From assembly GCA_051362555.1 (NCBI GenBank), contig CM120643.1, forward strand, positions 26,230,848 to 26,294,847: DNA of 64,000 nucleotides. The letters run 5' to 3'. The DNA is from Lingula anatina (taxonomy: Eukaryota > Animalia > Brachiopoda). Below the pieces are notes generated by a model. That model was not told the DNA's origin. It saw only the letters and a program-made list of their open reading frames with translations, and did no database searches. This document shows positions 10,027 to 63,655 of this stretch, piece by piece. The translations under genes and the position numbers were made by a program. Each line of letters opens with the position of its first letter. Positions within the stretch are counted from its first letter, which is position 1.

Positions 10027-11487
10027 CTAATATTTGGTACAGTCATAGGCGTAGGGCGAAGTCTTATATGGGCCTCTGTAGGCGGCAAGCTGACAGCTGT
10101 CCGATGTCGCCGTCTGTTGCGCTGTGGAACTGTACAGGTAAGAGTTATTAATGTCCGCGCCTCCATGACTCAAATCCGTCACATTTGAAGCAGGAAGATA
10201 CCAGGAATTGGGTGTACGGGAATAGGCAGGGGCTTGGTGCGTCATGTTCATAGACAACCCCTGGTCGTCAGTTGCCCCGGACATGGCGGCCATGGAGGGC
10301 ATGCCAGAGCTTAGGGGACGCTCCCCTGGGAACACGGAAGCAGCTGCGTTGTTGAGAGCGGCGTAACCCATGGGGCTGGAGGTCTGCAGGGGACGGCCGT
10401 AGGCTGACAGGGGCTGGGGAGAGATCAACTGGGAAGACGCCCCCGGTCGAGAGACAGACGTTAACATAGTCAGATCCGAGCTTTGTGTGGTCATAATATT
10501 TTCCACGGAAAAGTTGTTCACGGAACTCACCGCCACAGAGTCGTATGTTAGCGGGTCTGGCGGAATAGGGAGAGAATTCTGCGAGGAGGATTGCTTCATG
10601 CCGCCATTACTCATCGAGTCAATGGGTTCGAGTTTGGTTTGAACTAAATTGCTTGAGCCCGGAGTGTTGGATTCGGAAGATACCATGAGATGCTGCTGCT
10701 GCTGTTGATGTTGTTGTTGCTGCTGTTGCTGTTGTTGTTGCTGGGATTTTAACTCCAAATCCGAGGGGTCACTTTCCCCTGTCTGTCCCTGAGAATCCCC
10801 ATCACTCATCCCTCCATCAATCCCGCTTTTCTGTCCATCCGTGAACGACGCAGATGATTTATCACGCTCCTCGCGGTCCTTCAGAGCGTCTTTCTTCTTG
10901 AACCTCCTCCTGCGTCTCAGATAACTGCCGTTGTCGAACATATTATAGCTGTCAGGGTCCAGGGACCAGTAGCTGCCCTTCCCTGGCTTCTTGTCATCGC
11001 GAGGAACCTTGATGAAGCACTCATTAAGGCTGAGATTGTGGCGTATGGAGTTCTGCCAGCCTTGCTTATTTTCTCGATAATATGGAAACCTGTCCATAAT
11101 AAACTGATAGATCCCGTTCAGCGTGACCTTCTTCTCCGGGGCGCTCATAATGGACATGGCTATGAGAGCGATGTAGCTGTAAGGGGGTTTCACCATATCC
11201 TTGGGGGTGGTCTGGGGCCCGTACGGCTGGTGGCCGTAGGGAGAAGGCCTGTGCATGGCGTACTGGTCTGGATACATGGTCATTCCCGTTGGCCCCATGG
11301 ACATACCGGTCGAGGGGTACCCCGAGGGTGACTGGTGCCTGTAGTAGTTCTGTGTGTCGTAGAAGGAAGGCATGCTCGGCACCATCCCTAGGCCGCTGGG
11401 GTTGGAAGGCATAGCAGTCATGGAGTGGGCCGGGTACCGCGTCTGGAGAGTCCCGCCCGCCTGCATTGGCTGCATGACAGAGCACAT
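10027..11487 (-). CDS. FoxC: Forkhead box C transcription factor, single exon, 486 aa
   Basis: Forkhead domain [18 protein letters not shown]...[57 protein letters not shown] is typical of FoxC; eh1-like motif NFSVENIM; C-terminus YDCTKY as in vertebrate FoxC proteins; poly-Q tract; GC-rich ORF against AT-rich flanks. Confidence 0.96.
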
Positions 11488-41870: not shown

Positions 41871-44800
41871 CTAGAACAACCATTCTGGGACATATTCAGT
41901 ATATACACGATCTGCAGATCTCTTTTTCAGGGCAACCATGGATGGGAGGTCTTCGTCGGCGGATCTCTTTTTCAGGGCAACCATGGATGGGAGGTCTTCG
42001 TCGGCGGATCTCTTTTTCAGGGCGACCATGGATGGGAGGTCTTCGTCGGCGGATCTCTTTTTCAGGGCGACCATGGATGGGAGGTCTTCGTCGGCGGATC
42101 TCTTTTTCAGGGCGACCATGGATGGGAGGTCTTCGTCGGCAGATCTCTTTTTCAGTGCGACCATGGATGGGAGGTCTTCATCGGCGGATCTCTTTTTCAG
42201 GGCAACCATGGATGGAAGATCTTTGTCGGCGGATCTCTTTTTCAATGCGACCATGGAAGGGAGGTCTTCATCGGCGGATCTCTTTTTCAGGGCAACCATG
42301 GATGGGAGGTCTTCGTCGGCGGATCTCTTTTTCAGGGCAACCATGGATGGGAGGTCTTCTTCGGCGGATCTCTTTTTCAGGGCAACCATGGATGGAAGAT
42401 CTTCGTCGGCGGATCTCTTTTTCAGGGCAACCATGGATGGGAGATCTTCGTCGGCGGATCTCTTTTTCAGTGCGACCATGGATGGGAGGTCTTCGTCGGC
42501 GGATCTCTTTTTCAGGGCAACCATGGAAGGAAGATCTTCGTCGGCAGATCTCTTTTTCAGTGCGACCATGGATGGGAGGTCTTCGTCGGCGGATCTCTTT
42601 TTCAGGGCAACCATGGATGGGAGATCTTCGTCGGCGGATCTCTTTTTCAATGCGACCATGGATGGGAGATCTTCATCGGCGGATCTCTTTTTCAGGGCAA
42701 CCATGGATGGGAGGTCTTCATCGGCGGATCTCTTTTTCAGGGCAACCATGGATGGGAGATCTTCGTCGGCGGATCTCTTTTTCAGGGCAACCATGGATGG
42801 GAGGTCTTCATCGGCGGATCTCTTTTTCAGTGCGACCATGGATGGGAGGTCTTCGTCGGCGGATCTCTTTTTTAGGGCAACCATGGATGGAAGATCTTCG
42901 TCGGCGGATCTCTTTTTCAGGGCAACCATGGATGGAAGATCTTCGTCGGCGGATCTCTTTTTCAGGGCGACCATGGATGGAAGATCTTCATCGACAGATC
43001 TCTTTTTCAGGGCAACCATGGATGGAAGATCTTCATCGGCGGATCTCTTTTTCAGTGCGACCATGGATGGGAGGTCTTCGTCGGCGGATCTCTTTTTCAG
43101 GGCAACCATGGATGGAAGATCTTCGTCTGCGGATCTCTTTTTCAGTGCAACCATTGATGGGAGGTCTTCGTCGGCGGATCTCTTTTTCAGGGCAACCATG
43201 GATGGGAGGTCTTCGTCGGCAGATCTCTTTTTCAGTGCGACCATGGATGGGAGGTCTTCGTCGGCGGATCTCTTTTTCAGGGCGACCATGGATGGAAGAT
43301 CTTCGTCGGCGGATCTCTTTTTCAGGGCGACCATGGATGGAAGATCTTCATCGGCAGATCTCTTTTTCAGGGCAACCATGGATGGAAGATCTTCGTCGGC
43401 AGATCTCTTTTTCAGGGCAACCATGGATGGAAGATCTTCGTCGGCAGATCTCTTTTTCAGTGCGACCATGGATGGAAGATCTTCGTCGGCGGATCTCTTT
43501 TTCAGGGCGACCATGGATGGAAGATCTTCATCGGCAGATCTCTTTTTCAGGGCAACCATGGATGGAAGATCTTCGTCGGCGGATCTCTTTTTCAGGGCAA
43601 CCATGGATGGAAGATCTTCGTCGGCGGATCTCTTTTTCAGTGCAACCATTGACGGGAGGTCTTCGTCGGCAGATCTCTTTTTCAGTGCGACCATGGATGG
43701 AAGATCTTCGTCGGCGGATCTCTTTTTCAGGGCGACCATGGATGGAAGATCTTCATCGGCAGATCTCTTTTTCAGGGCAACCATGGATGGGAGGTCTTCG
43801 TCGGCGGATCTCTTTTTCAGGGCAACCATGGATGGAAGATCTTCGTCGGCAGATCTCTTTTTCAGTGCGACCATGGATGGAAGATCTTCGTCGGCGGATC
43901 TCTTTTTCAGGGCGACCATGGATGGAAGATCTTCATCGGCAGATCTCTTTTTCAGGGCAACCATGGATGGAAGATCTTCGTCGGCGGATCTCTTTTTCAG
44001 TGCGACCATGGATGGAAGATCTTCGTCGGCGGATCTCTTTTTCAGGGCGACCATGGATGGAAGATCTTCATCGGCAGATCTCTTTTTCAGGGCGACCATG
44101 GATGGAAGATCTTCGTCGGCGGATCTCTTTTTCAGGGCGACCATGGATGGAAGATCTTCATTGGCAGATCTCTTTTTCAGGGCAACCATGGATGGAAGAT
44201 CTTCGTCGGCGGATCTCTTTTTCAGTGCAACCATTGACGGGAGGTCTTCGTCGGCGGATCTCTTTTTCAGGGCAACCATGGATGGGAGGTCTTCGTCGGC
44301 GGATCTCTTTTTCAGGGCAACCATGGATGGAAGATCTTCGTCGGCGGATCTCTTTTTCAGTGCAACCATTGACGGGAGGTCTTCGTCGGCGGATCTCTTT
44401 TTCAGGGCAACCATGGATGGAAGATCTTCGTCGGCGGATCTCTTTTTCAGGGCAACCATGGATGGGAGGTCTTCGTCGGCGGATCTCTTTTTCAGGGCAA
44501 CCATGGATGGAAGATCTTCGTCGGCAGATCTCTTTTTCAGGGCAACCATGGATGGAAGATCTTCATCGACGAACGCATGCCTTTTCCGAACAAATGAGAG
44601 CGGAAGGTGAGTCCCGCTCAGGCTTCTTTTTACCGGTTTGGCTAAAAAGAAAAAGATTTCTCATTTATAGAACAAAATAAAAAATCGTAAGTGATAAAAA
44701 TGAATTAATTGATATTATATAAATTATATGAATGAATAAAATAAATAAGATAATAATGTTTGAAAGCGTTTTAAAAGTTGTCGCAAGTAACTAAAAATTA

Positions 44801-45435
44801 TCACTATCATCATCAAAAACGATTTTTCTTAATAGGCATTTGGCCGTCAAAGTTCGGTTGAAGGGACATAAAATTGGTCAACAAGTTTCTATTTTATTTT
44901 TGTTTATCAAAAGTGCGTACAACCAAGATATCGTCATTTTCTTTTATTTCTAAACTCTTAATATTCCATATCAAACTTGTCTTTTTTTTTTTTTTTTTTT
45001 TTGCCTCCGAAGCTGAAGGGATATTTGTCCGAATTGCTCCACCATTAGATCCGCCTTAGATTTGTATATACATGTATAGTACAAAATGTTCATAAACTGC
45101 TTATACAATAGTTTAAAGTTCTCTTAAAAGAGAACCTACGAATGCAAGCGCATATACTCTACAAAAAATAATAATTATATCAAACGCACAATTGGAAGTG
45201 CACAATTGTTGGTGATATTTGGAACAGCTCACATATTGCGAAAAGTGCTGTGTCTAGGCCGCGGGAGGCAGCTGACACACAGAAAAATGACCCAGAGGAA
45301 CATCTAAGAACTGGAGAGATTCACATAATAATAATAATAATAATAATAATAATCAAGTGTTTTTTAATACAACTCACCATTGGACTGGCAGACCAGGAGA
45401 ATGCAGGACGCGATAAGCACGGTTTTCATCCACAT
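41871..45435 (-). CDS. Secreted multi-copy peptide precursor (neuropeptide/RiPP-precursor-like): signal peptide plus 59 KKR-separated DEDLPSMVAL-type peptides; ~940-970 aa
   Basis: Exon 45435-45378 encodes signal peptide MWMKTVLIASCILLVCQSN (donor G|GTGAGT, phase 1). Optional in-frame 78-nt exon 45310-45233. Large exon 44641-41871 (acceptor ttttctttttAG, phase 1) reads KPVKR-SLSGTHLPLSFV-RKR-HAFVDEDLPSMVAL-KKR-(SADEDLPSMVAL-KKR)x58-SADRVYTEYVPEWLF*. Repeat variation is almost entirely synonymous in this frame. Probable 5'UTR exon ends at 45679 (AC|GTAAGT), spliced to the acceptor at 45466. Confidence 0.9.
41910..44567. repeat. 45-bp coding tandem repeat, ~59 units
   Basis: Unit approximately GATCTCTTTTTCAGGGCAACCATGGATGGAAGATCTTCGTCGGCG, head-to-tail with no spacers or indels. 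Confidence 0.98.
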
Positions 45436-46911
45436 AATGCTTATTATCGATATCAGCTTCAAAATTCTGGAAATGAAGCATGAAAAGTTTGAAAATATAA
45501 GTCATACAATCAACACCTTTCCCACAGCATTCTTAATAGTTCACTTACTAACGGTCGCGCTGTTCTCGAATATTTCAGTTTTTTTCGGTAAACAACAAAA
45601 TTAATTTCTGCAACGTTTCTATTTGAATTCTAACGCTAACAATTAGGATTAATACGTGTAAAAAGTTCCACCACTTACGTTTTCTTAAACAGCTACTCGG
45701 GTTTTCTGGTTGTCCACAAGATCAGTTCTCTCTCTTTTTTTCTCCCTCTCTCTCTCTCTGTCACTCTTTCTGTCTCCGCCGATGAAGATCAGTATTACAG
45801 CAGTGTGCGTGAGCCGTGCCTTATGTACAACGCCAGCCAGCCCCAGCTGTCACTCAAAGTTTGACTGACAGGCCCTGGATGACCCAGTGGTTAAGATCTT
45901 TTATATCCGCTTTTCGTAGAAAAGTCCTGCGACAAATCTATTTGAACAAACTAATGAGAGTTGCGCACGGTCCTTTGCTCTGATTCGTGGACGCTTATCT
46001 TACTTCCTTGGCTACGTTAATTATATTTACATACCCATAACCATCAATCCTCTTGAGAAACATTATCTATTTTAATTTGAGTTCATTTCACCGCTCAAAA
46101 TAAAAAAGAACTCAGGTCGATGCAGCAAAATAGAAAGAAGCGCTAGTGAAAAAACTATAGCAAAAGATCGTAATAGTGTCATTAGCCTAGCTTCTTGTAG
46201 CAAGAAATATTTTATGTTTGTTTTAACATCTGAACACGGCTTGTTCCAGATGCAGACGGCTGGGTTGCTCTCCGCAGCTGAAAATTCACCTGAAAATTCA
46301 CCATTTTCCAATATTTTCGATTACCGATTTTGCGGATGTAAGAGACAAACTTTTCAGAGGAGGGGATGTATCCTGGATATTTTTATGAGACAAGAAAGGG
46401 CAATATTGTTTTCAGAAGTCAGATTAAGAAGCAATCACCGTTTAGTAAAATCAAAAGCAGGTCAACAACTTCTAGCACGCTAGAATGCAATGTAACTTAT
46501 GTTGCGAGTGAGTTATGTAAGGTTGAAATACAGCTTCACCTCTCCTGTTCATTCGATTAAAACTGGTCTATTGTTGATTCGTTGAGTGGCGTGAGCACCA
46601 GTAATTTACAAAGAAAATGTATTGGCGCATTTTCCAGTGTGAGTTTGTCTATAAGGGGGGGGGGGGGGGTGTAGGTAATTTCAAATAGTGTGTCAATTTT
46701 ACTAAAGATCCAAAGAACGTGTTGTCGGTTATCTGTGACTTTACTTAATCCCCTTGATGTTCGTAGTCTGTTCGTCTTGTAATTCCTTGTGTATATTTTT
46801 TCTTAGTTCAGCGTTATCATGGTTATTTCTCAGCTTAGGAATTAACACTTAAAGGTAAGTTGTAAATAGTAGGTAGCATAGCTATTTCCATGACCCCATT
46901 CCCATACCTAG

Positions 46912-47117
46912 ATCGATCTAACAGGATCGACCTATCTCCGATGGGATTCTCGCTAAATTGCATTCAGTTATGGCGGCTTAGATGTCAGGCATGTCTATTG
47001 AAGCTGCTAAATGATAGTTAATTACCCCCTCATAGCTTCAGTAGGCGTGCAAGATATCAGAGCCCCTTAAGCTGAATGTAACTTAGCGAGAACCCCCGGA
47101 GATGGGTCGATCCTGCT

Positions 47118-47125
<8 letters not shown>
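46912..47125. repeat. Imperfect long inverted repeat (foldback/MITE-like hairpin)
   Basis: Arm 46912-47006 (ATCGATCTAACAGGATCGACCTATCTCCG...TCTCGCTAAATTGCATTCAG...TGAAGCT) matches the reverse complement of 47033-47125; ~26-nt loop. Confidence 0.85.
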
Positions 47126-47191
<66 letters not shown>

Positions 47192-47457
47192 AATGTGTGT
47201 GCGTGTGGGGGGGGGGGGTGGGCGGGGGTTGTAACTCGCATAAATAATTATATGCAACTCGTCAACCTTGTTTTTTTTTTATTTCTTTCCTTTATCATTA
47301 TCAATTTTATGTTTTCGAGTCAAGAATGCATCAATTACCAAATCACACACAACAGCTACGACGCTGACCCAGTGTCCCATATACCGACCTTCGGTATTTA
47401 CGTATGTGGACTTGAAATTCTCCGAGGTGCAGGTTGTTTACTCTGAATCCTGCTTAT

Positions 47458-47581
47458 TTTGTGTCCTGTTTCTGCAATGTTTGTTTCTTCCGCGTTTGCA
47501 GCAAAACAAGCTTTGTGTCCTGTTTCTGCAATGTTTGTTTCTTCCGCGTTTGCAGCAAAACAAGCTTTGTGTCCTGTTTCT
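47458..47581. repeat. 54-bp tandem duplication (2 full copies + partial)
   Basis: TTTGTGTCCTGTTTCTGCAATGTTTGTTTCTTCCGCGTTTGCAGCAAAACAAGC repeated identically. Confidence 0.92.
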
Positions 47582-47650
47582 AGTTTTGAACACTGTTGCA
47601 CTTGTTTTAAGACAGTTTTATTAACCTTTAAAGGTTGCCGATTAAAATCC

Positions 47651-47701
<51 letters not shown>

Positions 47702-48278
47702 CATTGCTTTGTCAATACGAGTGGTCTATTGCGCCATTAAAACAGTTTTTGGACGGTAAAGGCTGAGCCATTCGTTATCTCTCTCGGATCTCAGTGGACA
47801 TGGGCTCGACCACGGGGTGTAGCACTGGCCAGAACCGATCACTAGAGTCACGCGATCACAGACTTCATACAGTAGCTTTGTGGTAAAACACGATTAAATA
47901 CGCATCACGCAGGAGCTGAGACAACTGAGAGAAAGCTAGGGAGCCATGTCAACACGTAGCTCGTGACAGAGAGCAATGGAAGACCGTTGTTGGTGCCCTA
48001 TACATCAGCTGGGATAAAAGGAATTGATGATGATGATGAACTCATTAGACTGTAAAAAATTAAACATCCAATCTCAGTTTCCTTGTCAGTTTTATTTCTG
48101 ACAGCGAGTAAATTTCGTGGAAAGAAATTAAATGAATTGTCAAAAAGAATAATAATAAGAAGAAGAAAACAAGCAGCGTCCTGTGTCTGAAAATTATTAA
48201 GATGATAATGAGTATATATCACTTCGAGACAGGTTCATACATGTACATTTGTCAAAGTCGGTTAATGTCGTGGTCCCT

Positions 48279-48310
<32 letters not shown>

Positions 48311-49158
48311 TACAAAAAAACAGCTCATTTAAAAGACTCTTCCATTTCCCGACAAACAAAACACACAGAAAGCTACAGAAAATGCAATAAGCTTAATATA
48401 AAATGCAGCGGGGGTGGTGGGGGGGGGGGGGAGGCAGAAGCCTTTTTTAGATGTCCAGGATATGAATTTTACTAATACTCTTTGTAAAGAATTTTCATGA
48501 CGCTTTGTTTCAAGTACAGGTGTGTAAAGAAACCATAAATGTTGTGAACATAATGGCTTTATTATTTACAGTTTAATCTTTATCCTAATCCCATAGCCTT
48601 ATGAAGTTCTTTATATGTTATCAACGTATGTGAATTCTTAACATTTGTCTGAATTATAAAGCCTCTCTCTCTCTCTCTCTCTCTTGTTTGTTTGTTTGTT
48701 TTAAAAGTACACACGCCTTTAGACAACATCTGTGGAAAGGTGAAGGATTCGCCCTTAAAAGCACTCCAAATTCTTCAATCGTAATTTATTTTGACACAAG
48801 ATCCGTGAACCAATGTATTGTGTAGTTCCTTGACCATGAATTTTGCAGCAAAATATTTCCACGAACTCGACTTCAAAACAACATTCTTGCACAACCAAGC
48901 TCTTTTTCAACGGGCTCGTCTTGCTGAAGTCCGCCTTCTGGAAGGAGTTCCTGCACAGCCTCATTTAGAATATAACAGGCCTTCAAAGCGCGCTGGTTGT
49001 TTTCGTACTCTGAACGAGGCTCTGGTATGGATATTGTTTTCACCCTGAGAAGCTCCGCCCACAGGATTGAACGATCTCTGGTTTAAAGGCGGTCAATTTA
49101 CAAGGCGCGCATTTAGTAGTAAGCTGTCGGCTGGCTGGGGCTTTCCATCATTCTTAAC

Positions 49159-52100
49159 ATGTTCAACATTTTAATTTTTGTTTTTACGCTTTTCGCTCTC
49201 TCCTCGGCGGAGACGGACCGTTACGATGTTACTCTGAAGATACCAAACAAAGCTTTTGATGGGGTAAGCGTCTATTGCTTGAATTTTATTTAAGGATTTT
49301 GAAGAATCTAAACCTAGTAAATGAACTGATTTTCTAGTGAACAATATTTTTGAAATAGCATTTCGTATTATGAAAATGTTAAGACGGGAGTACCCCCTCC
49401 CCCAAGTATTGCCTTCTATTTAACAGACTGAATCTTATTTGTCAGATCTCCCAACTATTCCTAGAATTATTTAATTCATTTAAATTCAAGAAATATTTGA
49501 AATTGCTACGCTTCTTCTCTGGCTGCTGTTTATAACAGTAGCACTAAACCACAGAAACCACAGATGATGAATGAAACTTTCATTTGCACAGATCCGTAGT
49601 TTAGAATAAATTTTAACTAATTTGTTTGGTGACTGATTTTGGCTGTTTCTCTTCTGACTTTATCTGACTTCACTGTCGGAAGTAAATGTATAATTATTGA
49701 GTCCATTTATGTAGTCTTTGGCCTCTTTTATGAGAATCCCCCCCCCCCCCTTTGAATGTTCTGGACATGAATATAGAGTCAGCCTTCAAGCAAACATATT
49801 ATTTCGACCTTTACTAGTAAAACTCTCATTAAGCAACACCAATGAAGGCATATCGTCGAGGAGGGGGGGGGCACATGTTCTACCAACCTAAATATTCAAA
49901 TGAATGAAATCAGATTTGAAATCACATGAAAGTCCACTTGATGTTTCACATAGTTACTACTCAGATTGAATTTTTTCTTATTTTTTCTTTATTTCTATAT
50001 TCTGTCATTTCACTTATAGGAAATATGGATGGCCTGCACGACAACGACTCTCAAAGACGTAAAACAGTTTGTCAGTAAGTACATGTAGATGATAAGTTTA
50101 AGTTTTGTAATGCCATGCAAAGAAGAAAACCCACCTCAAGTTATTAAGGGAAGAGAGCGAAGAATTAACAAAATTGTTTTAAAATAAACCCATTATGCAT
50201 CATATTATTCCAGAATGGTAAAACAACATGCAATCGTACACCTGTACATATAACTATAAAGAACAAGGAACTCTACCTCTCTCTCTTTGTGTGTATGCGT
50301 GTAGATGTCTGCGTGTTTTTTTTTTTTTTTTTTTTTTCATCTTGTCAAAACCCATATCAAGTTTCTTATGTTAATGCAGGCTTACTTTCAAAACGACTAT
50401 CATATTAATATTATTTTTTCAGCAAACTTTCAGCCAGTTGCCAACCCTGGGATAGTCCACCATATGAGCATCCACGTGTGTGAAAAACCCTTCTCCACCG
50501 ACCCGTACTGGTGAGTTGAGGGCTTCAAAAAGTTAATTTTTTAACACGAAAGATGACAGTCGACGCATTATTCATAGTATTGTTCAAAGATAGAACAACA
50601 CTCATAAATAAAGTCGTATAGCTGAGAAGATTCTACTGGTTTTGAGATGAATGACAGGAAAGATCACACATTAAAAAGATATCTCATGACTGTCCTAAAT
50701 GAAAATTGCTGAATAAGCTTGATATATTCTTATAATATTATTATCATATTATAATTATTATTATTGCTGTTGTTGCTGTTGTTGTTGTTTTGTTTATTTG
50801 CCTAAGAGGAAAAAATTCCGCATGCCTAATTCAGCCTATTATACGGCCCGGTTTTCGTATTTCAGGGCCTGTGTAGATAAAAACCGGGTATGCGGACCGA
50901 GTGGGAGATTGCCATTGTTTGAGTGGGGACGAGATGCGCCCGGCTGGAAAATACCCGAAGGTGAGCGAAAGCGCACTGGTAGTTGTCACCGGGAGTTACG
51001 TGTGACATTCTGTTTGTAATACTGTTTATTGAACTTTTTTGTCGGTAATTGTCGGATCTATAATTGATAGGATTTTTGTTGCAATAAACAATTTGCATCC
51101 TTGTACCGGTTCCGCTATTGCATGGGCGATGAAAGCGATTTATTTGCCCCTGCTGCCAGCTGCCCTGTTATGGCGAGTGCGGCAACGCGGTCAGTTATGT
51201 AGGTGTTACCAAAAATAACGTGCCTACTCTTCCTGATTGTCCTTTTCCGTGTGACACGGTATTTTAGTTGCAACAATCATTGGTTTGTGTCCAGTGATAC
51301 GATCCTTCAACTTTGAACAGCATCTGGTCATGCTTTGGCGAGGAGGATTCGCGGTTTGCGTTGTTCTTGGCCATTTATTAGGCAAAAGTTTAGAAAAAGG
51401 GTATGAGCTGGGTGTTCAATGTTGCCTATAATTTTTCTCGCTTTATTTTAATTTCTAACCTCTCCAAGTGCATAAATTGAACAGGGTGAAGATCTTCAAG
51501 AATTATATCGCTGGCCGTTTTCAGGGTCTTTCCCAATTATCATTTCCCAATGCCATAATCATCAACTGAGGCCCGCCCGTACCACTCAGTTACCGCGTAC
51601 GTTCAAATATCGCCGTTAAAAAACGCATTTTGGATAATAGCATTCAATTTCCTTATATAATACAGGCCTTTGCCGCTTTTTATACAAGTTAGCATAAATT
51701 TACCGTGTTCATTGAAATAATTCCAATAACACACCTATAAAAGTTCATAAAAAGACACATTTTGGATAAAAGCATTCAATTTCCTTATGAAATGCCTATG
51801 TCACCGTAATACGTAACAAGGTGTGGGATAAGATGCACAGAATGGTAATGTGTCTTGATCACATGGTTTTGAATTCTCAAAACATCACATTGGATTTGAA
51901 GAAACTCATGCGTTTTCGTACGCGGGGCATTTACATTTAATAAACATGTTCTTGAATTCTTAATTAGTAATTAACGTTATCAATCTCTAGGTACACTGTT
52001 TGTCTTTATTTTGTTATTCTCTTTATTTATTTATTTTTCATTTTCATTCATTATTTAATTTATTTTTTCCAGGTTACGGAATTCCTGTAGATCGCGACCA

Positions 52101-54713
52101 TCTTCACGTTGTTCTTCAAATACATATGAAGGAAGACATAAAAGGTAATTAGCCTGCCCCTCCTTTTCTGTGCTTTTTAAGGGGCATCAGTTCAAAAGTT
52201 TTAGTTATATGGAATAAAAAGCTTTAAGAAATTATAAATCAAATAGAAAAAATAGAAAAAGCATTGTAATGAAGAGTATTGTGGGTTAAATAGAGAAAAA
52301 AATATGCGTCCGTTCTTTTAGACTTCTCTTCCGCAAATAACACAGAGTTGATTTAAATTGTCTTAATTTTACATATGTTTTTACTTCAAATAACGCCTTA
52401 AGTGTTGACTTTCATCAGGGAATGGAGCTTAACATTGAAATATTGGGGAAATTATGATTGTATCTTTGATTACACAGTAGGCTATAGCTGATGAAATACT
52501 TTGCTTGATTTTAATTTTTTATTTTCATTTTTTTTAGCTTCTGCCACCGGGCCTCTGGACTTCAGCGGTCTAAGAGTGTCCCTGAGAACGACTCAGCCTC
52601 AGTATGAGATCGCCATGGGGGTGCTAGGGAACGTGGGATACGTGCCGGCTAAAACTGGAGGTAAGCCCTCCCCCCCCCTCTCTCTCTGTGTGTGTGTGTG
52701 TGTGTGTGTGCGTGTGTGTGTGTGTGTAAATGAATACTCAATTGTGTTTATATTAGTTTCAGATAAGTTGCTCATGAAGTAGACCTACAAACGTCCTTAA
52801 ATAAATAAATAAACAATTTATTTAATTTAAAAAAATTACAATGTTCATATATGCACAAATGTTTAACACAAAATATTCTATTATTTCAGCCGCCACCACG
52901 GACTCTGCCTGCAAGTGGCCGCTGCCCATGACGGTGCCTCTGGCCGCCTACTCCCTCCACACACACAATCTAGGTAAAAATGGATGCTTTCTGCAATTTA
53001 ATTTAAATCAAAATGGAGATTGATTTCAAAATATTACAGCTGATGCTTATGAATGTAAGTTGTGCATTCTTTTCCGAGAGTTTTAGACAAAGAGAAGCAT
53101 TATTTAGCCGAAATACAACGAAAACGCTGCCAGTATATGACATTTTTTCCCTCCGAACGGCCTAAAGCGCCATCTAAGGTCATAATCAGTTCTCCATTCT
53201 TTTGCCACCAGGTCGCGCTGTGTCCGCCTACATAATTCGCAATGGTGAATGGATTGAGATTGGTCGAGGTGACCCTGGATATCCAGAGGTGATTATAGTG
53301 TTAATGTATAGAGTGTTCTCAGCTATAGATCTGTGGCCATTGTCAAAAAATAACACAAGTCCGAAAATTGTTTTACTTCATAGATCAGAATTTTAGAATT
53401 TTTGTTTAAAAAAATTAATTTATCGATAAATCAGTAGTAGTCCAATTTATTAAATCGCTGCGCCAGTTTTTTTTTTACAATAGCATGGTAGACTTGGCTA
53501 ATGTTTTTGGGCTAAAGCTCTTTAATGAAGCGAAAATTTTTAAAAACGAAAATTTTATCATAGACAAGAATGTGAGACGTCGAAAATGCGTTTAAATTCT
53601 TCTTGCAGGGGCCAGCTGGGAGGGGGGTATTTGAGACAGAAGTTAGATTCAAGACCTGATAACTGTAGTGATTGGTCTAGATACATTCTACGTACCTTAA
53701 TCTTTAGAAATAGCAATGGTTTAACCCATTTTCTTTCTGTCCACTACAGATGGTGATGGACATTGCTGACAGAGGACTGACCATTCGACCAGGAGATATT
53801 CTGGTAAGATAGCGTCCGCTTAGCAAAGAGTAATAGATGTATTTTGAAGTAATAGTTATTTTAATTTGTTTAAGTTTTATTTCCGTAGAATAAATATATT
53901 TGCAGGTTAAACAAATCACTAAAACGATAACGTTTTTTCTTTTTATATCGGGATAAAGAAGCGAATTTGTCTACTGTACTTTTGTCTGAACAGTTATCAG
54001 TAATCTGTTTTCTGGTGCAAGGAATTCATTATTTTCTTTTTTCTTTTTCAATTAGGCTGCAAGATGCACCTTCGACAATGACCAAGATCATGATGTGAAG
54101 TTTGGGTAAGTATTGTAAAGATTACGTTTTAACCCATATGCCTGACAGCGTAAAAAAGTGTACTCAAAAATATCAAGACGGGGATGGGTAAAAAATATTT
54201 TTTTAAAACTGCTGTTCCTCATCCAAAAATTAAAATATCGGTGCAATTTAGGAAAAATTAGTTTCTAGAAGCATACAGGATTGCGTGTTCTGCCATTTTG
54301 GAAAAGGTGAAGAGAACTGCAACCCTTGTTTTATTTCATTTAAAAATGGACCCGTTACTGAAAATTTTAATTTATTTTAATTTTACAATGTGAAAAACCA
54401 GTATTTATTCTATCATAGCTCTTGCTTTCTTTCTTTATTTTTCGGTTGACTGATTTATTAATTGGTTTATTGATTGATTGATTTTCCCTGCAGCTCCGAG
54501 CACGGCGGTGAGATGTGCAACGTGTACCTGCACTATGGCGTCAGCAGCGACACCCCTGCCCATCAGCGCATGCTCCAATGTTCGACTAACGCCCAGAAGT
54601 TTCACTGGGACACGTACTTCGAGTCCACGCCAGCCGACGCCTCAGACCCCAACGGGGATACTGACCAGGCTAGAATGGTCAAGCGTCTAGGTCTGGTCAA
54701 AGTGCCATATTAA
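49159..54713 (+). CDS. Stand-alone PHM-like (peptidylglycine alpha-hydroxylating monooxygenase family) Cu type II ascorbate-dependent monooxygenase, 11 exons, 340 aa, secreted, no PAL domain
   Basis: Phase-consistent GT-AG exons: 49159-49263, 50020-50074, 50423-50510, 50866-50960, 52073-52144, 52538-52660, 52890-52973, 53212-53288, 53750-53803, 54056-54105, 54494-54713 (1023 nt). Signal peptide MFNILIFVFTLFALSSA. Motifs VHHM, EWGRDAP, VLQIH, DFSG, HTHNLG, RNGEW..IGR, GDILAARCTF and EMCNVY are colinear with the PHM catalytic core. AATAAA at ~54817. Confidence 0.93.
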
Positions 54714-56485
54714 TTGTTTGAGATTGAGTTTATTAAAGTATGCTGGATGACAGTGCATAAAAGAATTCAAAGTGCGTCGATATCAAGCTTAAAGAGTTGA
54801 TTTCAAGAAGCTGCAGAATAAATGCATTTATTGAGAAAAACAATTGACTGTAAATTGAGGATTTTGGAGACCCCACAATTAAATTCACTACCTCTGTTTT
54901 CTTATTGTATTTTCTAAATTTATTCAGCCAATCGGTCAACCTCGATAAGTCCCGTATCCACTGTTCTAGGTATGCGCTCAACAGAGATCTCCCGAATAGT
55001 CATCTTGTTTTAGTGTTGGGTGTATTTTGAGCATACGCCCTTCACGCTCATTGTAATTAAAAGCAATGACAAGTACCTGTTGCTTTGATACGTGCGCTGC
55101 CTTTTGTTTTACATAATATGATAACATATTTGTTTTGTTGTTAATTGTAATTGATCAAATAAACCAATTTGATGTATTTACGTGCCTCGCGACTTTTTAT
55201 CATGTCAACAATAGTTACTGAGATAAGGCTATGTGAGAGAAATATGGTGCAAGGTATGTGTTGATTAAAATTTGAAGAAATCATTCTTTTTCTCCATAAA
55301 GAAATCCTTGCACCCCCCCCCCCAAAAAAAAAAAAATAAAAAAAATAAAAAATAAGTACTTTGTTTGGTTTGTTAATTTGGATACGTTGGCAAGAAAATG
55401 ACTCCCTGGAATGATTTCTGTTGTAGGAGTTTGTATCAAAACTTGTGGTAATCCAAAGCAATAACAACCCTCTTCAAATCTATTTAAAAGTGATATTACG
55501 CACGAGTCGGAAGCCGAAGTCAGCCAGAGGTCACAAACCAGTGTGATTTAACCCTGTCAGAAAAATATTCTCTTGATTTAACAAAAAAAAAAAAAAATTT
55601 AGGCCTATAAGGAAATACATCAGAAGTCATTAAAATGCATGTATTTCAAGGTTTTAGTAAGTTCTTAAAACAATAGTGATTTTAATTTCTATCGTAAATG
55701 AGTGTTCAACACCACATAGCCTGCTGTAGAAATAACAGATTCCACTCAATCAATCGCAAAAATGCCGTGACCAGATCCCAGTGAAGGCACCTTGTATCAA
55801 AAATGTCCCCTTCATGTAACGAATTACTTTCTAATTTTGATTCGTGTAGTACTTGTTGTCATTCGCGTTATGACATCTTTAAAGCGGTAGTTTGGTGTTA
55901 TCTACCGCGTTTGTAGCGACCCAGCCTACGGTTTATCGGAGAATTTAGAAACCGTGAATAAACAACGTCCACACGCGTGCATGTCTTCCACTATGGATAC
56001 ACAACTTCGTGATTGAAAGATTTTAACCCTCTTTCACAGCTCAGGCAGTTAATGACCTGAAAATTTTCACTATTTATTTAATATAAAGTTTTTAACTAAT
56101 TTTCTTTAAAATGCAGTAGTTCTTAATAGTAATGCAAAATGTTTTTGTAGGTTCGTTAGCTTATGTGTAATGATTATGTTAGTTCGACTCATTAAAATTT
56201 ACAATAAAGCACAGACACTTAAAATCTAGGTCGTTGCTACATAAGCGATGAATTTCGGTTAGCCTAATCCAAAATAATTCTATATATTGCTTGCTAGAAG
56301 AAAAAACAATTCCACACCCTTTTAGGTATGTTTCGCTATATAAATTAAATCTTGCTACAAATATTTTCATCATGCATATACCAATGTTTAAATATCGAGC
56401 TAAAACGCTTTAAACGGAGTCCGCGCAAGAGGGCAAATTAATCCCAGCTACCAAAAGTTATCGGAGAATAGGGGTGTTTCACTTT

Positions 56486-56546
56486 TATAAAACAGCAGAT
56501 CGTGTTAGCAGCGGAAGGAGCGTTGCCGAAAAAAAACAAAATTTAG
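56486..56546 (+). promoter_or_regulatory. TATA box and probable non-coding first exon of the small secreted gene
   Basis: TATAAAA at 56486-56492; donor AG|GTAGGA at 56546/7; acceptor TAG ~56726 just before the ATG at 56748. Confidence 0.45.
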
Positions 56547-56747
56547 GTAGGAAATAATTCGACATTTTTAAATATTGTCTTTAAATTAAGAACTAGGAAA
56601 ATAAACACGAGTTAATATAACGTAAAAGGTCAGGGTTCTCTTAAGCGACAAGTATGATTGATTTCATGGCTTTTTCTAGTAGTCTTTCATTCAAATTACA
56701 ATTTCTCATTTAAATTGAAACGGTAGACAAGCAGCATACACCTCAAG

Positions 56748-57308
56748 ATGCACACCTCGCTGACAGTAACCCTACTTATCGTCTGCGCTCTGCATTTGAT
56801 CGTCTGCGCGCCTTCTCCATCCCTGATGAAGGAACTGAAAAATCTTTACGAAGCCGAAGGTACAATTATATTGACACAGAAATTGATTTCAATATATAAA
56901 CCTAATATATATAATCCCGCTTTATATTTACGTTTTCACTTTTACATTTTTGAGGCAACCGGTTACGGATTTACAGAATTTAGAATTATGACTTGGACAG
57001 ATCTTTGGGATTAATCTTAAGGAAACAGTAGCACAAAGCTTCAAAGCTGTAATCATTAAATTCCCATAATGTACCAAAGGACAATCAAAAAACATTAAAA
57101 GTGAATCACCGAATTAAAGAAGTATAAATTGGACATTATAAAATCATTTGACACCATTTTTACGTTATTTTCGAAGTCGACGAGATTTCAGTGCGAGATG
57201 AGCTTACAAAGGACTCCGCCGTGAGGAGAGCAGATCCTCAGGCAGAAAATAGGCCGCTTCGACCTGGGGAAGGTAAATCTTACCGATTTGTGTCGTTTCA
57301 GAGAGATC

Positions 57309-57349
<41 letters not shown>

Positions 57350-58686
57350 TATTTGGAAATTCTCTTGGAACTCTGCTTATGATTCGGGCATCAAATCTAG
57401 AGAGATCGATTTGAATCGGCGGAGATAGTCCATTTGAAGTCAAGAGATAATATTTTTATCTTAAACTGTTAATGAATTATGACATCCATTGTGTGCTTTA
57501 AAGTAAAGAATGTGTGTGTGCGTGCGTGCGTATGTGTGTGTGTGTGTGTGTGTGACTATAGGTTCAACTAATATTTCTTAACGGCATAGTAAAGCACAAA
57601 TTTTAAGTCGGGGAGTATTGCATATTTATGTTATCTGATATATCCCGACCTCTTCAAAATTTTTATATTCTTAAAGTATAAAAACAAGGTACAAAAAACC
57701 GAGAGAAAACCTACCCTCTACCAGGGCGACAGATTGAGTTTTCACATATGTCTCTAGATAAATAGTCAGTCATTTGGCTGTCTGGCTTTTTCCATTTTCC
57801 CTATATAATCTGCCACCCTGGAAGAGGGTAGGGGAAACCCAACTTGTAGAGCTCTTTCAACACGTGTATATGTGTGATCCTTCCACACCCCGGGTTTCAG
57901 GAGTTATTGGGGACCCAGCTCTATCACATAGAACTACTAGTGGGAGTCAGTTACTACTAACTGAGATTCTCAGCGTGCCCTTTCTAACTCTAAACTCTAT
58001 ATCTCTAGGCTACGATCCTTGCGAGTTTGAAGGCACTTTCCGTGAGTATGGAGAGAAGTTTGAGGTGGTGGACAAGGTACTGAAATGCCGCAAGACGTGC
58101 TACTGCCAGGGGAGCACTATTGGCGTGTTCTGTCACCCATGTAAGGTAAGCAGACGATTAACTATCGAGTTCTGTTCTACCAAGTTATTAAATGCCAAAT
58201 TAAAATTTCATTTATTATTGAAAAAAAAAAACAACAAACAAAAAACGTTTAGTATTTTTACTTAAAAGGGGCAAAAAACGATAGATTTCTATGCTAACAT
58301 TTTATTTAAGCGTTCATGAAGATTACTAGGCATCCAGATGGGATAGTGTGCATATTTTTTTTTTATTTTAAAAGGACTTGCAATGTCAATACCTGATTCG
58401 TATTTCACAGGGAGGGTCTTGTTCAGAAAAAGTGGGTCATTTACCCACCAAGATGACCCAGCTAAAGAAACGGAATAAACCCCCAATTTTATAACCTTTT
58501 CCGATCAAAAAAAGTGGTTCTTTTGCACCCCCCCCCCCCCCCCACCACCACCATTGACTGACATTGAAAGTCTAGACAAGATGACAAACATTAACAACCG
58601 CGTATTTTAATTGACAAAGACAAAAGTTAATCTTTTCCTAATAACAAACCGTACTATTTCCAACGTCTCTTCTGTTTCAGGCCTGA
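56748..58686 (+). CDS. Small secreted Cys-rich prepropeptide (signal + acidic pro-region + RR + 6-Cys VWC-half/pacifastin-like module), ~111-116 aa
   Basis: Exons 56748-56859 (MHTSLTVTLLIVCALHLIVCAPSPSLMKELKNLYEAE), 57177 or 57192-57272 (..VRDELTKDSAVRRADPQAENRPLRPGE), 58009-58145 (GYDPCEFEGTFREYGEKFEVVDKVLKCRKTCYCQGSTIGVFCHPCK) and 58681-58686 (A*). All phases are compatible and all introns are GT-AG. Confidence 0.8.
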
Positions 58687-59349: not shown

Positions 59350-60481
59350 TCATCCGGGTCTTTCGTGAATTGGCAAACTTTTCATATAGCACATAAACGT
59401 GCTCCACATAAAGGTGGCGCTACTGAGAAAGAGGAGCCTCCTGTCTGGTGGCACATACTTGTAGTTGATGAACTGGACGAACGGGAAGTACATGCATCTG
59501 ACCTAGAGAAATTGAAACAAAATCGAGAGTTTCGAAAGAAGATAAATAATATGAAAAAAAACATCAGATACGGTAATTTTCCCCGCCTTTGTTGCAATTA
59601 AAATGCCTAAACGCACTGAACATCTGTTTTTATCTTAAAACAGGTCTGGGTATACGTGTACCTTGTACGTATGAAAAGTCGGTTGATTAGATTTAATGTT
59701 AGTATTATATCTTCATAAATAAAGGGTCTAATTGATTTATTTTTATTTTATTTTTTTATTTTTTATTTTATTTTATTTTTTTTTTTACTAAAAGAAGACT
59801 ATAAAGAAGACTATATTACATTATATTACAGTGAACATATTTACCTCATAAGTTTTAAAGAATTTTTCCTGCAGCTCTTCCCAACTTTCTTTTAAACTTC
59901 TTCTCTCGAATAAATTATTAGCTTAAAAGGAACACAAAAGGAAAGATAAGCATAGGCCTATGAAATGGAAAATAAAGAAAAAAAAGGAATTAAGATATTT
60001 TACAAATGGACGATATATTTTCTCTCTCTGACTCTCTACTTGAAAGTAAAGTGAGTTTCAAAGGATCTACCTCATTACATCAACAGCGCCACCACCAGAG
60101 GGCGATAAGGCCGATAAGGCAGTAGATCAAACATTAAAAATCATCATACTAATCCAAGACAATCCACTCACCACAATAAAACGTGGTGATAGCAATGGGG
60201 CCAAACACCACCTGTTCCACCAAAACTCTTCGAGCCACGGCGACAAAAGTTCTACTGGGAGAGAATATCCTCTCGGCAATCCGAACCCAAGTGAAGTTCA
60301 GTGGCCCGATGAAGATACAGCCCGCTAAGCTGCGCCTCAGCGTCTCTAAGCTGTCATACGGTCTCTTATGGCGGTCAATAACTATCTGGTCAACTATATC
60401 CGCACCCGTGTAAATGGCCCCATAACTTAACATGCTTTTTAGTACGGGGTACGACTTCCATATTCTATACAGTTTCCTCAT
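59350..60481 (-). CDS. Mpv17/PMP22 family membrane protein (Mpv17-like), 3 exons, 179 aa
   Basis: Exons 60481-60172, 59921-59845, 59502-59350. Motifs GADIVDQ, GPLNFTW, VLVEQVVFGP, FPFVQFINYKYVP..RLLF and W..F.CY are typical of the family. Confidence 0.9.
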
Positions 60482-63193
60482 GTCTTTCCAGAAGTCCCGT
60501 AGTTTCCCAGGTTCTTATACTTTCCGGAACATCGGAACATTGGACTGATTCATGATTGAAATGTGTAATGATCGTCTTTATCAGCCTTTATCACTTTGTC
60601 CCATACAGCAGCCACAGCAGTGTGCGGTAGCTTTACTTGCCCTGTCCTTTGTAGGCCTATACTGACTATATAACATAGTGCCGATATAAACCATTACCTG
60701 TTTCGTTTTCCAGCCAAGTTCTATAAATAGGCCGTTACGGCGAAAAACCTACTAACTGTTGGCCCTACCTTATTTTTAAATAATTTCTTCGCAGGGACAG
60801 TACATATTGTATGGTGAAACGAGACACTGTTCAGATTACGTTTGTTATACATTTCGAGAGCTCAAGCAAACGTACAAAGGGTGGGGTAGACTGGTGAAGC
60901 GTGGGAAAATTATAAATAGAAGAGGTGGGATCGTCGGGTCAATTCCACCCCCCCTCCCCTCTCTCTCTCTCTCTCTCTCTCTCTGTCTGTGGGCAATACG
61001 GCTTTTTTCCAAAGTTTGCTCATAGATTTTCTTCGTCTAAGCGACCAAATATCGACAAGGAAGTCCGCGTGTTCTACACCTGGGACAATCCATTCTTTGA
61101 AGTTTTAATCCGATTCTCAACTTATCTTCCCGTATCATTTCTCAGTCTCCTTGTCTCATTGACTACAAACTGAGATTAATTCTTATCAATATTAGTGTAT
61201 AACTACCCTAGTGAGCCTATACATTGTGATAACACCTGCAGTTTGTCCGAAAATACGTCGCCGAGCGAATGCTTTTTTCGTAAAACATTCGAAGGGACAA
61301 CGTACATGTACAAAGGTGTCTTACAAGGACGCCATCATATATTTTAAATCAGCTTGCGTTGTGTATTTATACATTTTAATGTATTATTTTAATGATTAAA
61401 ATCAACAACGGTTAAGTACTAGTGTCTCTAGGCCTGTTATGGTTATCCCAAAAAACTTCAAAGAATGAATTGTCCCAATTACGTGCAGATCCCGCGAATT
61501 TCTTCGTGAGATTTATCTAATTTGGTCACTTAGAACGAACAAAAATTGTGAGCAAAGTTTGAAAAACGGCCGTATTGCCCAGAGAGAGAAGGGGGTGGGG
61601 GGTCAGACGTTCCCTCCCAATCTCCGACCCGACCTGAGAACGATTGATGTGTAACAGTAGCGAAACGAGCGGAAATTCAGCATCCATTTTTTTATTTAAA
61701 GAGAAAGATTGAGTAGGCCCTGTAACTCGAATATTCTGCTCATTTTTCATCAAATTATTGTTATAGTTAAATTTACTCCGGTCGCATTCAACTTTGTTGT
61801 AACTTTATTCGCTTTTAACTGACTGAAGCTGACGGTTTTATTATTTCTTCTGTTCAGGAGGTACCGATTTTTCCAGTTGGTTTGTTAGTTAACTCAAAAA
61901 AGTTCTAGATGAATACTGATTAAAAATTTCGGAAATATAATTACTTAAAATCGATAAAATTATGGTGGTTATAGTGGGGATCAATGCTCTCTAACTGCTT
62001 TTCGTAACTGTATAAGTCTGGATCGAGTTCTGAAGATAATTTACCACTCAGTGCAGTCATTAATGTGCTAGCCGCTATACACTGCTTTATTTCTTAGCTG
62101 TAAGGTGCAAAAAAATTTTCATTTTTGAGACAATCTAAATTATTTTCAGGAGGTGACTGTGCCCTAGCATCATACACCAGTGTAAGACTTTATTTGTTTT
62201 ATACTTTCAACAAAAATATCATTATTTCTTTAACAGTTTTAATAATCCCATACCAATGCATCAAATAATATGAAGCTATAACATATGTAACAAGTTTTTT
62301 TATTAACAGAAAGGTAACAGTACTTTAAGGTTAAGATATAATCATATCTTAGTAAATATTGTAAATTGTGCATATTCAATAACATTAATAACATTAATTG
62401 CAATAAATTGTAATAAAGTTAACTGCATAACAAATATATTAATGGATAAGTAAATATAGTTTTACTTTGTTTCACTTAGTTAAACAATCAGAAGTTTAAA
62501 TATATAGAACCATGATCTATGTAATAAGTCTTATTCATAGAAATGTAGCAGTAATTTAAAGGTCAAGAAATATAAATGAGTAAATATGGTGATCTGTGCG
62601 TACATGAATTTAACAAATAATTAATATGCAAGTTTGGCCTCAATTAAATAGTTAACATAAGGGTGCCAGAAATTGCAATGATATAATTTGGAAAAAGATG
62701 GTTTTTTTTTTCTTAAAAATGCAAATATATAAACCATTTTTTGCAAATATACAAACCTTTTCTCTAACAGTTCTTTAAATTTGTTTTAAATAAGTCTAAA
62801 GTCAATAGCATTCATCAAAAGTTAAAAGAATCAAAATCACAAATTTATCGAAAAAAATCCTTTCTCCATAAAAGGAGATCCGACCAGAAGTTGCATGCAC
62901 AGTAAAAGACCAGAAATCTCCAAAAATGAGAAGATTGCACCACCTGATGGGGTAAAACTGATGTATGAAAATGGGTCATAAAACAGCATCACAAAGGATT
63001 TCTATTATTCATAAAATTAAAAATCAGTATTCATTGATAAAATCTCTCTAAAAAGTAATTCAAGGCTGCCCTACTACTTACTCTCCAGATGTACAATGGT
63101 CATGACGATTTGCAATATCACTATAGATAAACGCAGTGAACTGCTTGCGTGAAAACCGACATCTTTAAATTATGATCTACATATTTCTTACTG

Positions 63194-63655
63194 TCACTCC
63201 TGGACGGGAAGATTTTTCATATAGCACATAAACGTACTCCACAAAAAGGTGGCGCTGCTGAGAAACAGTATCCTTCTGCTGGCTGATATATACTTATAGT
63301 TTATGAACTGAACCATGGGGAAATAAACACATCCTGCCTGAAATAAGAAAAGGTCATACGAGGGCAATGAAGGATTTCATTGGGTCATTTCACATTGAGC
63401 GATATATCTTAGTGGTCCATATGTAGTTGCATTGCTATGGAGAAAGTTTGGCCTCTACTGGTATTCATGAGTATCAGATAAGACGACTTCATATCTTTTA
63501 ACTATCCTAACTGTAAATCTACTATCTATCTGCCTTTGACAAGTGGATAATATAGCAAACTGCACTTAGCTTTTTTACCTTGAAGGACGTCCAGAACTTA
63601 TCCCTGAGCTCTTTCCAACTTTCTTCAAAACTTCTCCCTTCTAGTAAATAGTTAG
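63194..63655 (-). CDS. Second Mpv17/PMP22 family paralogue, last two exons (first exon beyond window end)
   Basis: Exons 63655-63579 (ANYLLEGRSFEESWKELRDKFWTSFK) and 63337-63194 (AGCVYFPMVQFINYKYISASRRILFLSSATFLWSTFMCYMKNLPVQE*). Same intron phases and same 77-nt middle exon as the neighbouring copy. Confidence 0.88.

Follow-up and report, generated by a model that had tools for sequence, protein, structure and literature searches.

A repeated-peptide precursor gene arranged head-to-head with the gene for a divergent PHM-fold copper monooxygenase in the brachiopod Lingula anatina: a candidate precursor and tailoring-enzyme pair

PHM is a textbook single-job enzyme, whose job is glycine-dependent amidation. 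For peptide precursors whose units are delimited by KKR, convertase cleavage after KKR and carboxypeptidase trimming are the established route of processing. In PHM, Arg240 forms a salt bridge with the carboxylate of the substrate while Tyr318 and Asn316 provide secondary contacts, and the enzyme takes the pro-S hydrogen, with a D-Thr peptide being a slow substrate (PMC12164859, in the part of the article available). Here we describe a locus in a 64,000-nucleotide stretch of the Lingula anatina genome (contig CM120643.1, positions 26,230,848 to 26,294,847; hereafter the window, numbered from its first letter) in which the gene for a secreted precursor with 59 peptide cores and the gene for a PHM-fold copper monooxygenase stand head-to-head, 3.7 kb apart from ATG to ATG. 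We tentatively propose, at slightly less than an even chance, that the two are a dedicated precursor/oxidase pair in which the enzyme oxidises the core away from a C-terminal glycine.

The precursor gene lies on the minus strand. Its main exon (41871–44641, minus strand) encodes two single-copy N-terminal peptides, the 59 KKR-delimited cores and one C-terminal aromatic peptide before the stop codon, and an RNA joint (44641–45378) connects it to the exon that carries the start codon at 45435 and the signal peptide (45378–45466, minus strand). The RNA evidence is drawn from eight of nine listed raw-read runs from three studies, which have no tissue labels and cover the precursor at its 5' end only. 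A 5' untranslated exon (45679–45870, minus strand), with an approximate 5' end, is attached by a joint at 45466–45679 that has CT..AC ends and was seen in five of the eight runs; its reads are interrupted by a masked repeat at 45725–45775, and a TATA-like box lies ahead of it near 45900. Both the intron at 44642–45377 and this further exon, from 45679 upward, are spliced in the RNA. The product is 942 amino acids long with a hydrophobic signal peptide, and KKR follows each of the 59 cores, which bears out the secreted 59-core precursor that a sequence-only reading of the window had placed at start codon 45435.

When the product is split at KKR or KR, it yields 54 exact copies of SADEDLPSMVAL (computed mass 1246.58 Da), four variants with one residue changed, and a first core that is longer. 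The repeated core contains no F, W, Y, H or C. None of the 59 cores ends in glycine, and the sole glycine of the large exon is internal and belongs to a single-copy peptide, in agreement with the earlier claim that no peptide ends in this residue. Two single-copy peptides flank the array at 41871–41915 and 44581–44625 (both minus strand); the C-terminal one contains two Tyr, one Trp and one Phe, and could itself be a product or a substrate. No relative of the precursor appeared in the protein collection, which is weak evidence for a repeat, nor was there a usable match in the Atlas. Searches by term likewise returned none of the core words from the portions available of the supplements to two brachiopod and mollusc neuropeptide catalogues (PMC8557429, PMC6425005).

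At the DNA level the cores form a tandem array of 45-bp units (41917–44568, minus strand; 58.9 copies, 92% matches), each encoding the 12-residue core and KKR. The 57 units scored against the consensus carry 133 synonymous and 3 non-synonymous differences. Since the array copies are related to one another, these 136 differences are not independent events, and the synonymous bias is to be read as evidence of constraint. Counted instead as distinct alleles, 12 of the 32 possible synonymous changes are present in the array and 3 of the 103 non-synonymous ones (Fisher p 1e-6). The core is under purifying selection. The synonymous excess in the KKR frame indicates that the array is protein-coding in that frame, and on this ground we rejected its interpretation as a satellite. 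We also rejected the plus-strand and other open frames across the array: none of them encodes a signal peptide, and the synonymous bias points to the KKR frame instead. Pfam matches in the repeat, no stretch of which passed, were set aside as artefacts of repetition. Reads of study P7, which are mostly 90–99% alike, keep DEDLPSM in the first core with the preceding residues altered, and have a loose end at 44577.

The facing gene occupies 49159–54713 on the plus strand and encodes a 340-residue protein with a signal peptide and no PAL domain. Its 11 exons lie at 49159–49263, 50020–50074, 50423–50510, 50866–50960, 52073–52144, 52538–52660, 52890–52973, 53212–53288, 53750–53803, 54056–54105 and 54494–54713 (all plus strand), and seven of the ten introns are among the best-supported RNA joints shown. 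One residue distinguishes the protein from RefSeq entry XP_013381446.1 of Lingula anatina, to which the last exon is 100% identical. Both domains of the family are present (PF01082 and PF03712; Cu2_monooxygen and Cu2_monoox_C), and the match to rat PHM has an E value of 1.6e-37. A predicted structure (mean predicted local distance difference test, pLDDT, 80.5) would resemble PHM structures, with template modelling (TM) scores of 0.72–0.76, more closely than DBH (0.61). The enzyme keeps the three CuH ligands of PHM (H107, H108 and H172, as His66, 67 and 132) and the three CuM ligands (H242, H244 and M314, as His203, 205 and Met275), and Gln170 and Glu313 are kept as well. The divergent PHM-like copper monooxygenase that had been read from 49159, about 3.7 kb from the precursor, is thus upheld. 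So is its claimed loss of the carboxylate-binding arginine: the residue at Arg240 is Ser201. The substrate pocket is also changed elsewhere (rat numbering), at L110>S, Y173>M, Q272>E, the AFYP segment, and M320>H.

A profile search at E 0.001 returned 1758 proteins, and the 150 best were examined. In a quick tree built from 65 of the 165 domain rows (LG+G4; midpoint root; support from the Shimodaira-Hasegawa-like approximate likelihood ratio test, SH-aLRT, only), 17 rows including the Lingula enzyme group together at SH-aLRT 99 as a clade of brachiopod and mollusc PHM paralogues. Its rows come from Lingula, a JGI protein, Solemya velum, three scallops, a cluster containing Tegillarca, the chiton Liolophura, Octopus bimaculoides, Haliotis, Pomacea, and Logan proteins. 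After removal of nine near-duplicates, residues were counted in 15 non-redundant clade rows and 141 others. Arg240 is kept in 2 of the 15, both from gastropods, versus 129 of the 141. Further positions conserved outside the clade and altered inside it are Leu110, Tyr173, Gln272, the Phe274–Pro276 segment, Met320 and Tyr322 (rat numbering). As the loss of Arg240 extends across the clade, it is an old clade trait common to molluscs and not a novelty of Lingula. The phylogenetic check proposed at the outset came out in part: the enzyme falls in a separate clade, and the canonical Lingula PHM or PAM expected elsewhere was not identified in the searches. Glycine-extended precursors in Lingula imply that a canonical PAM exists.

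Members of this clade differ at the CuH ligand His107. Lingula, Solemya, Mizuhopecten and the chiton retain it, and the Lingula, Solemya and chiton proteins have all six ligands. His107 is replaced in scallop, ark clam, abalone and octopus members (P0005, P0006, P0010, P0014, P0022, P0164), and the abalone member has kept Arg240 and lost His107. A second, neighbouring divergent PHM group (P0062 from freshwater mussels, P0143, P0153, P0108) has changes at Arg240, Asn316 or Tyr318. In addition, PAM proteins with two tandem PHM domains were seen in Nematostella, Owenia, a copepod and one further source (P0012, P0015, P0016, P0017).

The precursor and enzyme genes are both intact, and they are on or off together in all eight RNA runs, being absent in two, both low in one and both high in five. 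Splice-joint reads for precursor/enzyme are 0/0 in X12, 0/0 in X13, 5/33 in X16, 61/737 in X17, 125/641 in X15, 531/591 in X18, 1011/1188 in X19 and 2304/2174 in X20. Per-million counts of the two give a Spearman coefficient of 0.90 with a nominal p of 0.002, which overstates the significance because the runs are grouped in studies; the clearest single comparison is that within study P6, in which X16 shows a joint fall of both genes. The stranded runs place the two transcripts on opposite strands. By a rough estimate the enzyme mRNA reaches 500–1700 reads per kilobase per million (RPKM) in five of the eight runs, far above what is expected of a housekeeping amidating enzyme. A transcript at 62719–63366 is present in X13, in which the pair is off.

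Between the two genes lies a shared divergent upstream region (45871–49120, no strand assigned) of about 3.3 kb, containing microsatellites and dispersed repeats and showing no gene-like depth in the eight runs save for repeat-derived reads. The enzyme transcript starts at 49121–49138 and, given the upstream non-coding exon of the precursor, the two transcript starts are also about 3.3 kb apart. The same GC-rich 10-mer stands near both 5' ends (45833–45842, minus strand; 49129–49138, plus strand) and nowhere else in the window. It was found post hoc and we dropped it as evidence; among random pairs of 400-bp segments, 23% have some 10-mer in common and 0.4% a GC-rich one, and two bases of the enzyme copy are different in the study P7 reads. 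If about five such enzyme genes and 30–60 repeat precursors are assumed, the probability of chance adjacency is 1–2%.

Downstream of the enzyme, a model built from GT/AG sites in the sequence only predicts a small secreted protein of 116 amino acids with six Cys and a signal peptide (56748–58685, plus strand; exons 56748–56859, 57177–57272, 58009–58145 and 58681–58685). It has no Pfam family, a weak fibronectin match at E 1.2, and a 45-residue Cys-containing exon for which no fold match was found, and none of its joints is among the best-supported RNA joints shown. This gene had been counted as part of the unit. Its depth is at most about 1x in all eight runs, while exon bins of the pair reach hundreds, and the Cys-rich gene is therefore probably outside the pair; of the co-expression anticipated for three genes, that of precursor and enzyme stands and that of the third gene does not. 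On the other side of the locus is a single-exon forkhead gene (10027–11487, minus strand; PF00250), whose sequence looks FoxC-like. Open reading frame (ORF) and exon scans of the 30 kb that separate it from the precursor found no gene. No DUF3328 oxidase was found, and scans of ORFs, exons and RNA detected no other genes nearby, although genes with small exons upstream could be missed. Two similar genes at 59400–60600 and 63200–63340 (both minus strand) have low expression that does not track the pair; they have a Mpv17/PMP22-like look by eye, and the one ORF tested had no Pfam hit.

We infer that the enzyme acts on the core from their adjacency and co-expression, the constraint on the core, the intact copper sites and the altered pocket. 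Under this proposal, entry through the signal peptide, convertase cutting after KKR and carboxypeptidase trimming would release about 59 peptides, mostly SADEDLPSMVAL, in the secretory compartment of the enzyme. The side chain of an L-residue would fill the position of the glycine pro-S hydrogen that PHM takes, and a C-terminal L-Leu held in a widened pocket could thus present its side chain to CuM. With the side chain so placed, hydroxylation of the side chain (+16 Da) of an aliphatic residue at the C-terminal end, Leu or Val, would be the first guess as the likeliest reaction, the exact site being much less sure. The product might serve in defence, as a signal or in the matrix. Variants of the scheme would be desaturation or decarboxylation, or a glycine-independent backbone cleavage to the amide. 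A wider and more doubtful proposition is that the locus exemplifies a clustered animal system for RiPPs (peptides synthesized on the ribosome and modified post-translationally), in which an ancient PHM paralogue left glycine amidation to become a dedicated oxidase of multi-core KKR precursors. The Solemya, scallop, ark clam, chiton and octopus members would then each mark an undiscovered modified peptide, and the chemistry might be C–H oxidation of an L-residue or glycine-independent amidation.

Several observations weigh against a dedicated pair. No second genome shows the linkage and, whether the enzyme alignment or the precursor was used, scans of metagenome contigs yielded no confirmed relative. 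None of the 172 proteins fetched has fused repeat cores, and the clade is widespread in molluscs. The substrate contacts Asn316 and Tyr318 are kept (Asn277 and Tyr279). His107 is replaced in 8 of the 15 clade rows, one of them truncated, so that some clade members may lack ordinary monooxygenase activity. The eight runs represent only three studies with tissues not stated, and the precursor/enzyme ratio differs by study (0.08–0.20 versus 0.85–1.06), a difference for which 3' bias or true regulation could be responsible. Co-expression is frequent among head-to-head genes that belong to no common pathway, and if any of 100–200 peptide-modifying genes is counted, 0.2–0.8 chance pairs per genome are expected on assumed numbers. 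Finally, a protein of the acid-insoluble shell matrix of Lingula, 05602, is listed with a PHM hit, 340 residues, 38 kDa, isoelectric point 5.9, Ala 8, Gly 8 and 12% acidic residues (PMC4595640, Suppl. Table 25, in the part available); the corresponding computed values for the window enzyme are 340 residues, 37.8 kDa, 5.88, 7.6, 7.9 and 11.5. By these six listed properties, and not by sequence, the two appear to be the same protein, which suggests that the enzyme is made and is secreted into the matrix, where it may have a different substrate.

The shell match is also an argument for an alternative that is possible but somewhat unlikely, namely that the two genes are active in the same cell under shared enhancers and have different jobs. 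The peptide would act unmodified, in signalling or defence, and the enzyme would oxidise something else, either a small molecule or a protein in the matrix of shell or periostracum. A 291-residue PHM-like protein in a Nautilus shell list is consistent with this account (PMC13425148 supplement, in the part available). So are the ordinary occurrence of Gly-free multi-copy precursors in Lingula, as seen in the portion of the neuropeptide record available, and the age and spread of the enzyme clade, whereas relatives of the peptide were not found. However, 05602 is represented by one unique peptide and is not starred as mantle-specific (PMC4595640, in the same part), and under the terms tried the available part of the PMC13425148 supplement gave a PHM-like protein for Nautilus only and none for Lingula. 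Separate jobs would moreover require the coincidence that a paralogue of a peptide oxidase faces a peptide precursor.

Alternatively, the genes may be chance neighbours, the enzyme still being a Gly-specific PHM for other amidated peptides, with co-expression resulting from one regulatory region, common to both, on the border of the FoxC gene desert. The presumed FoxC gene is indeed 30 kb off with no gene found between, the database annotation of the enzyme is PHM, its six copper ligands and Gln170, Glu313, Asn316 and Tyr318 are all in place, and no canonical Lingula PHM or PAM turned up to take this role. We nevertheless consider the account quite unlikely, given the loss of Arg240 in 13 of 15 clade rows against its retention in 129 of 141 other PHM domains, an expression pattern that is absent from two of eight runs and extremely abundant in five, and the window itself, in which no PAL domain or PAL gene was seen. 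The least probable of these accounts is a non-catalytic partnership in which the protein binds copper and serves, in the manner of neurophysin, as a carrier or packaging partner of the acidic peptide with which it is co-secreted. It draws on the replacement of His107 in scallop, ark-clam-type, octopus and abalone members and on mRNA ratios near 1:1 in three runs; but Lingula, Solemya and the chiton retain every copper ligand, and a 1:1 carrier is unlikely for a precursor that holds 59 cores.

In the literature searched, with subscription journals mostly outside its scope, we found no description of the clade, the pair or the peptide, nor of any peptide-plus-tailoring-enzyme arrangement in an animal; the two Lingula genes likely form such a pair. 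A clade that has kept its copper sites and rebuilt its carboxylate pocket suggests another peptide chemistry, for which this genome supplies a candidate substrate of defined sequence. If the pairing is true, animals gain a precursor and tailoring-enzyme cluster of the fungal type, and the PHM without Arg240 becomes a handle by which mollusc genomes can be mined for modified peptides. Should the pairing fail, the literature searched still appears to hold no description of the clade or of the 59-copy peptide.

The enzyme shares with PHM (PDB 1PHM, 1OPM, 1SDW; EC 1.14.17.3), including the monofunctional PHM of invertebrates, the two-domain fold, the CuH and CuM ligands, Gln170, Asn316, Tyr318 and a signal peptide. 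It differs in the Ser at Arg240, in other pocket changes, in its separate clade, in the adjoining Gly-free precursor, and in its very high on/off expression. The precursor in turn resembles those of AxxxDF and the pedal peptides, non-amidated spiralian proneuropeptides that also have a signal peptide and near-identical, Gly-free copies delimited by KR; AxxxDF is present in Lingula (PMC8557429 supplement, in the part available). In contrast, the Lingula array sequence was found in neither catalogue as far as these were available, and it has 59 copies and a peptide-oxidase paralogue as its neighbour.

Among RiPP systems, in which a precursor and its enzyme are adjacent and co-expressed as the Lingula genes are, the plant burpitide cyclases (BURP domain) also rely on radical chemistry with copper and O2, carried out at a His2Met site, and act on ribosomal peptides with multiple cores (PMC12164859, in the part available). 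However, they have an unrelated fold, are often fused to the core, and form Tyr/Trp cross-links, residues absent from the Lingula core. Conopeptides are likewise secreted, post-translationally modified animal RiPPs, but have single Cys-rich cores and biosynthetic genes that are not clustered (PMC6514808, in the part available). The fungal dikaritins (ustiloxin UstA, phomopsin PhomA) have in common with the Lingula pair a signal peptide, repeated cores between ED and K(K)R, and an adjoining gene for an oxidative enzyme (PMC6514808, same part). The sequence-only reading had taken this grammar as evidence, a use that does not hold, since ordinary Lingula neuropeptide precursors such as AxxxDF are similarly KR-delimited, multi-copy and Gly-free; the likeness is an analogy only. 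The Lingula core has no Tyr or other aromatic residue for an ether macrocycle, the enzyme has a PHM fold and is neither DUF3328 nor tyrosinase, the host is an animal, and no homology was found. By this analogy, the Lingula pair would work like a fungal Kex2-processed repeat precursor with its clustered oxidase, yet it is not a dikaritin.

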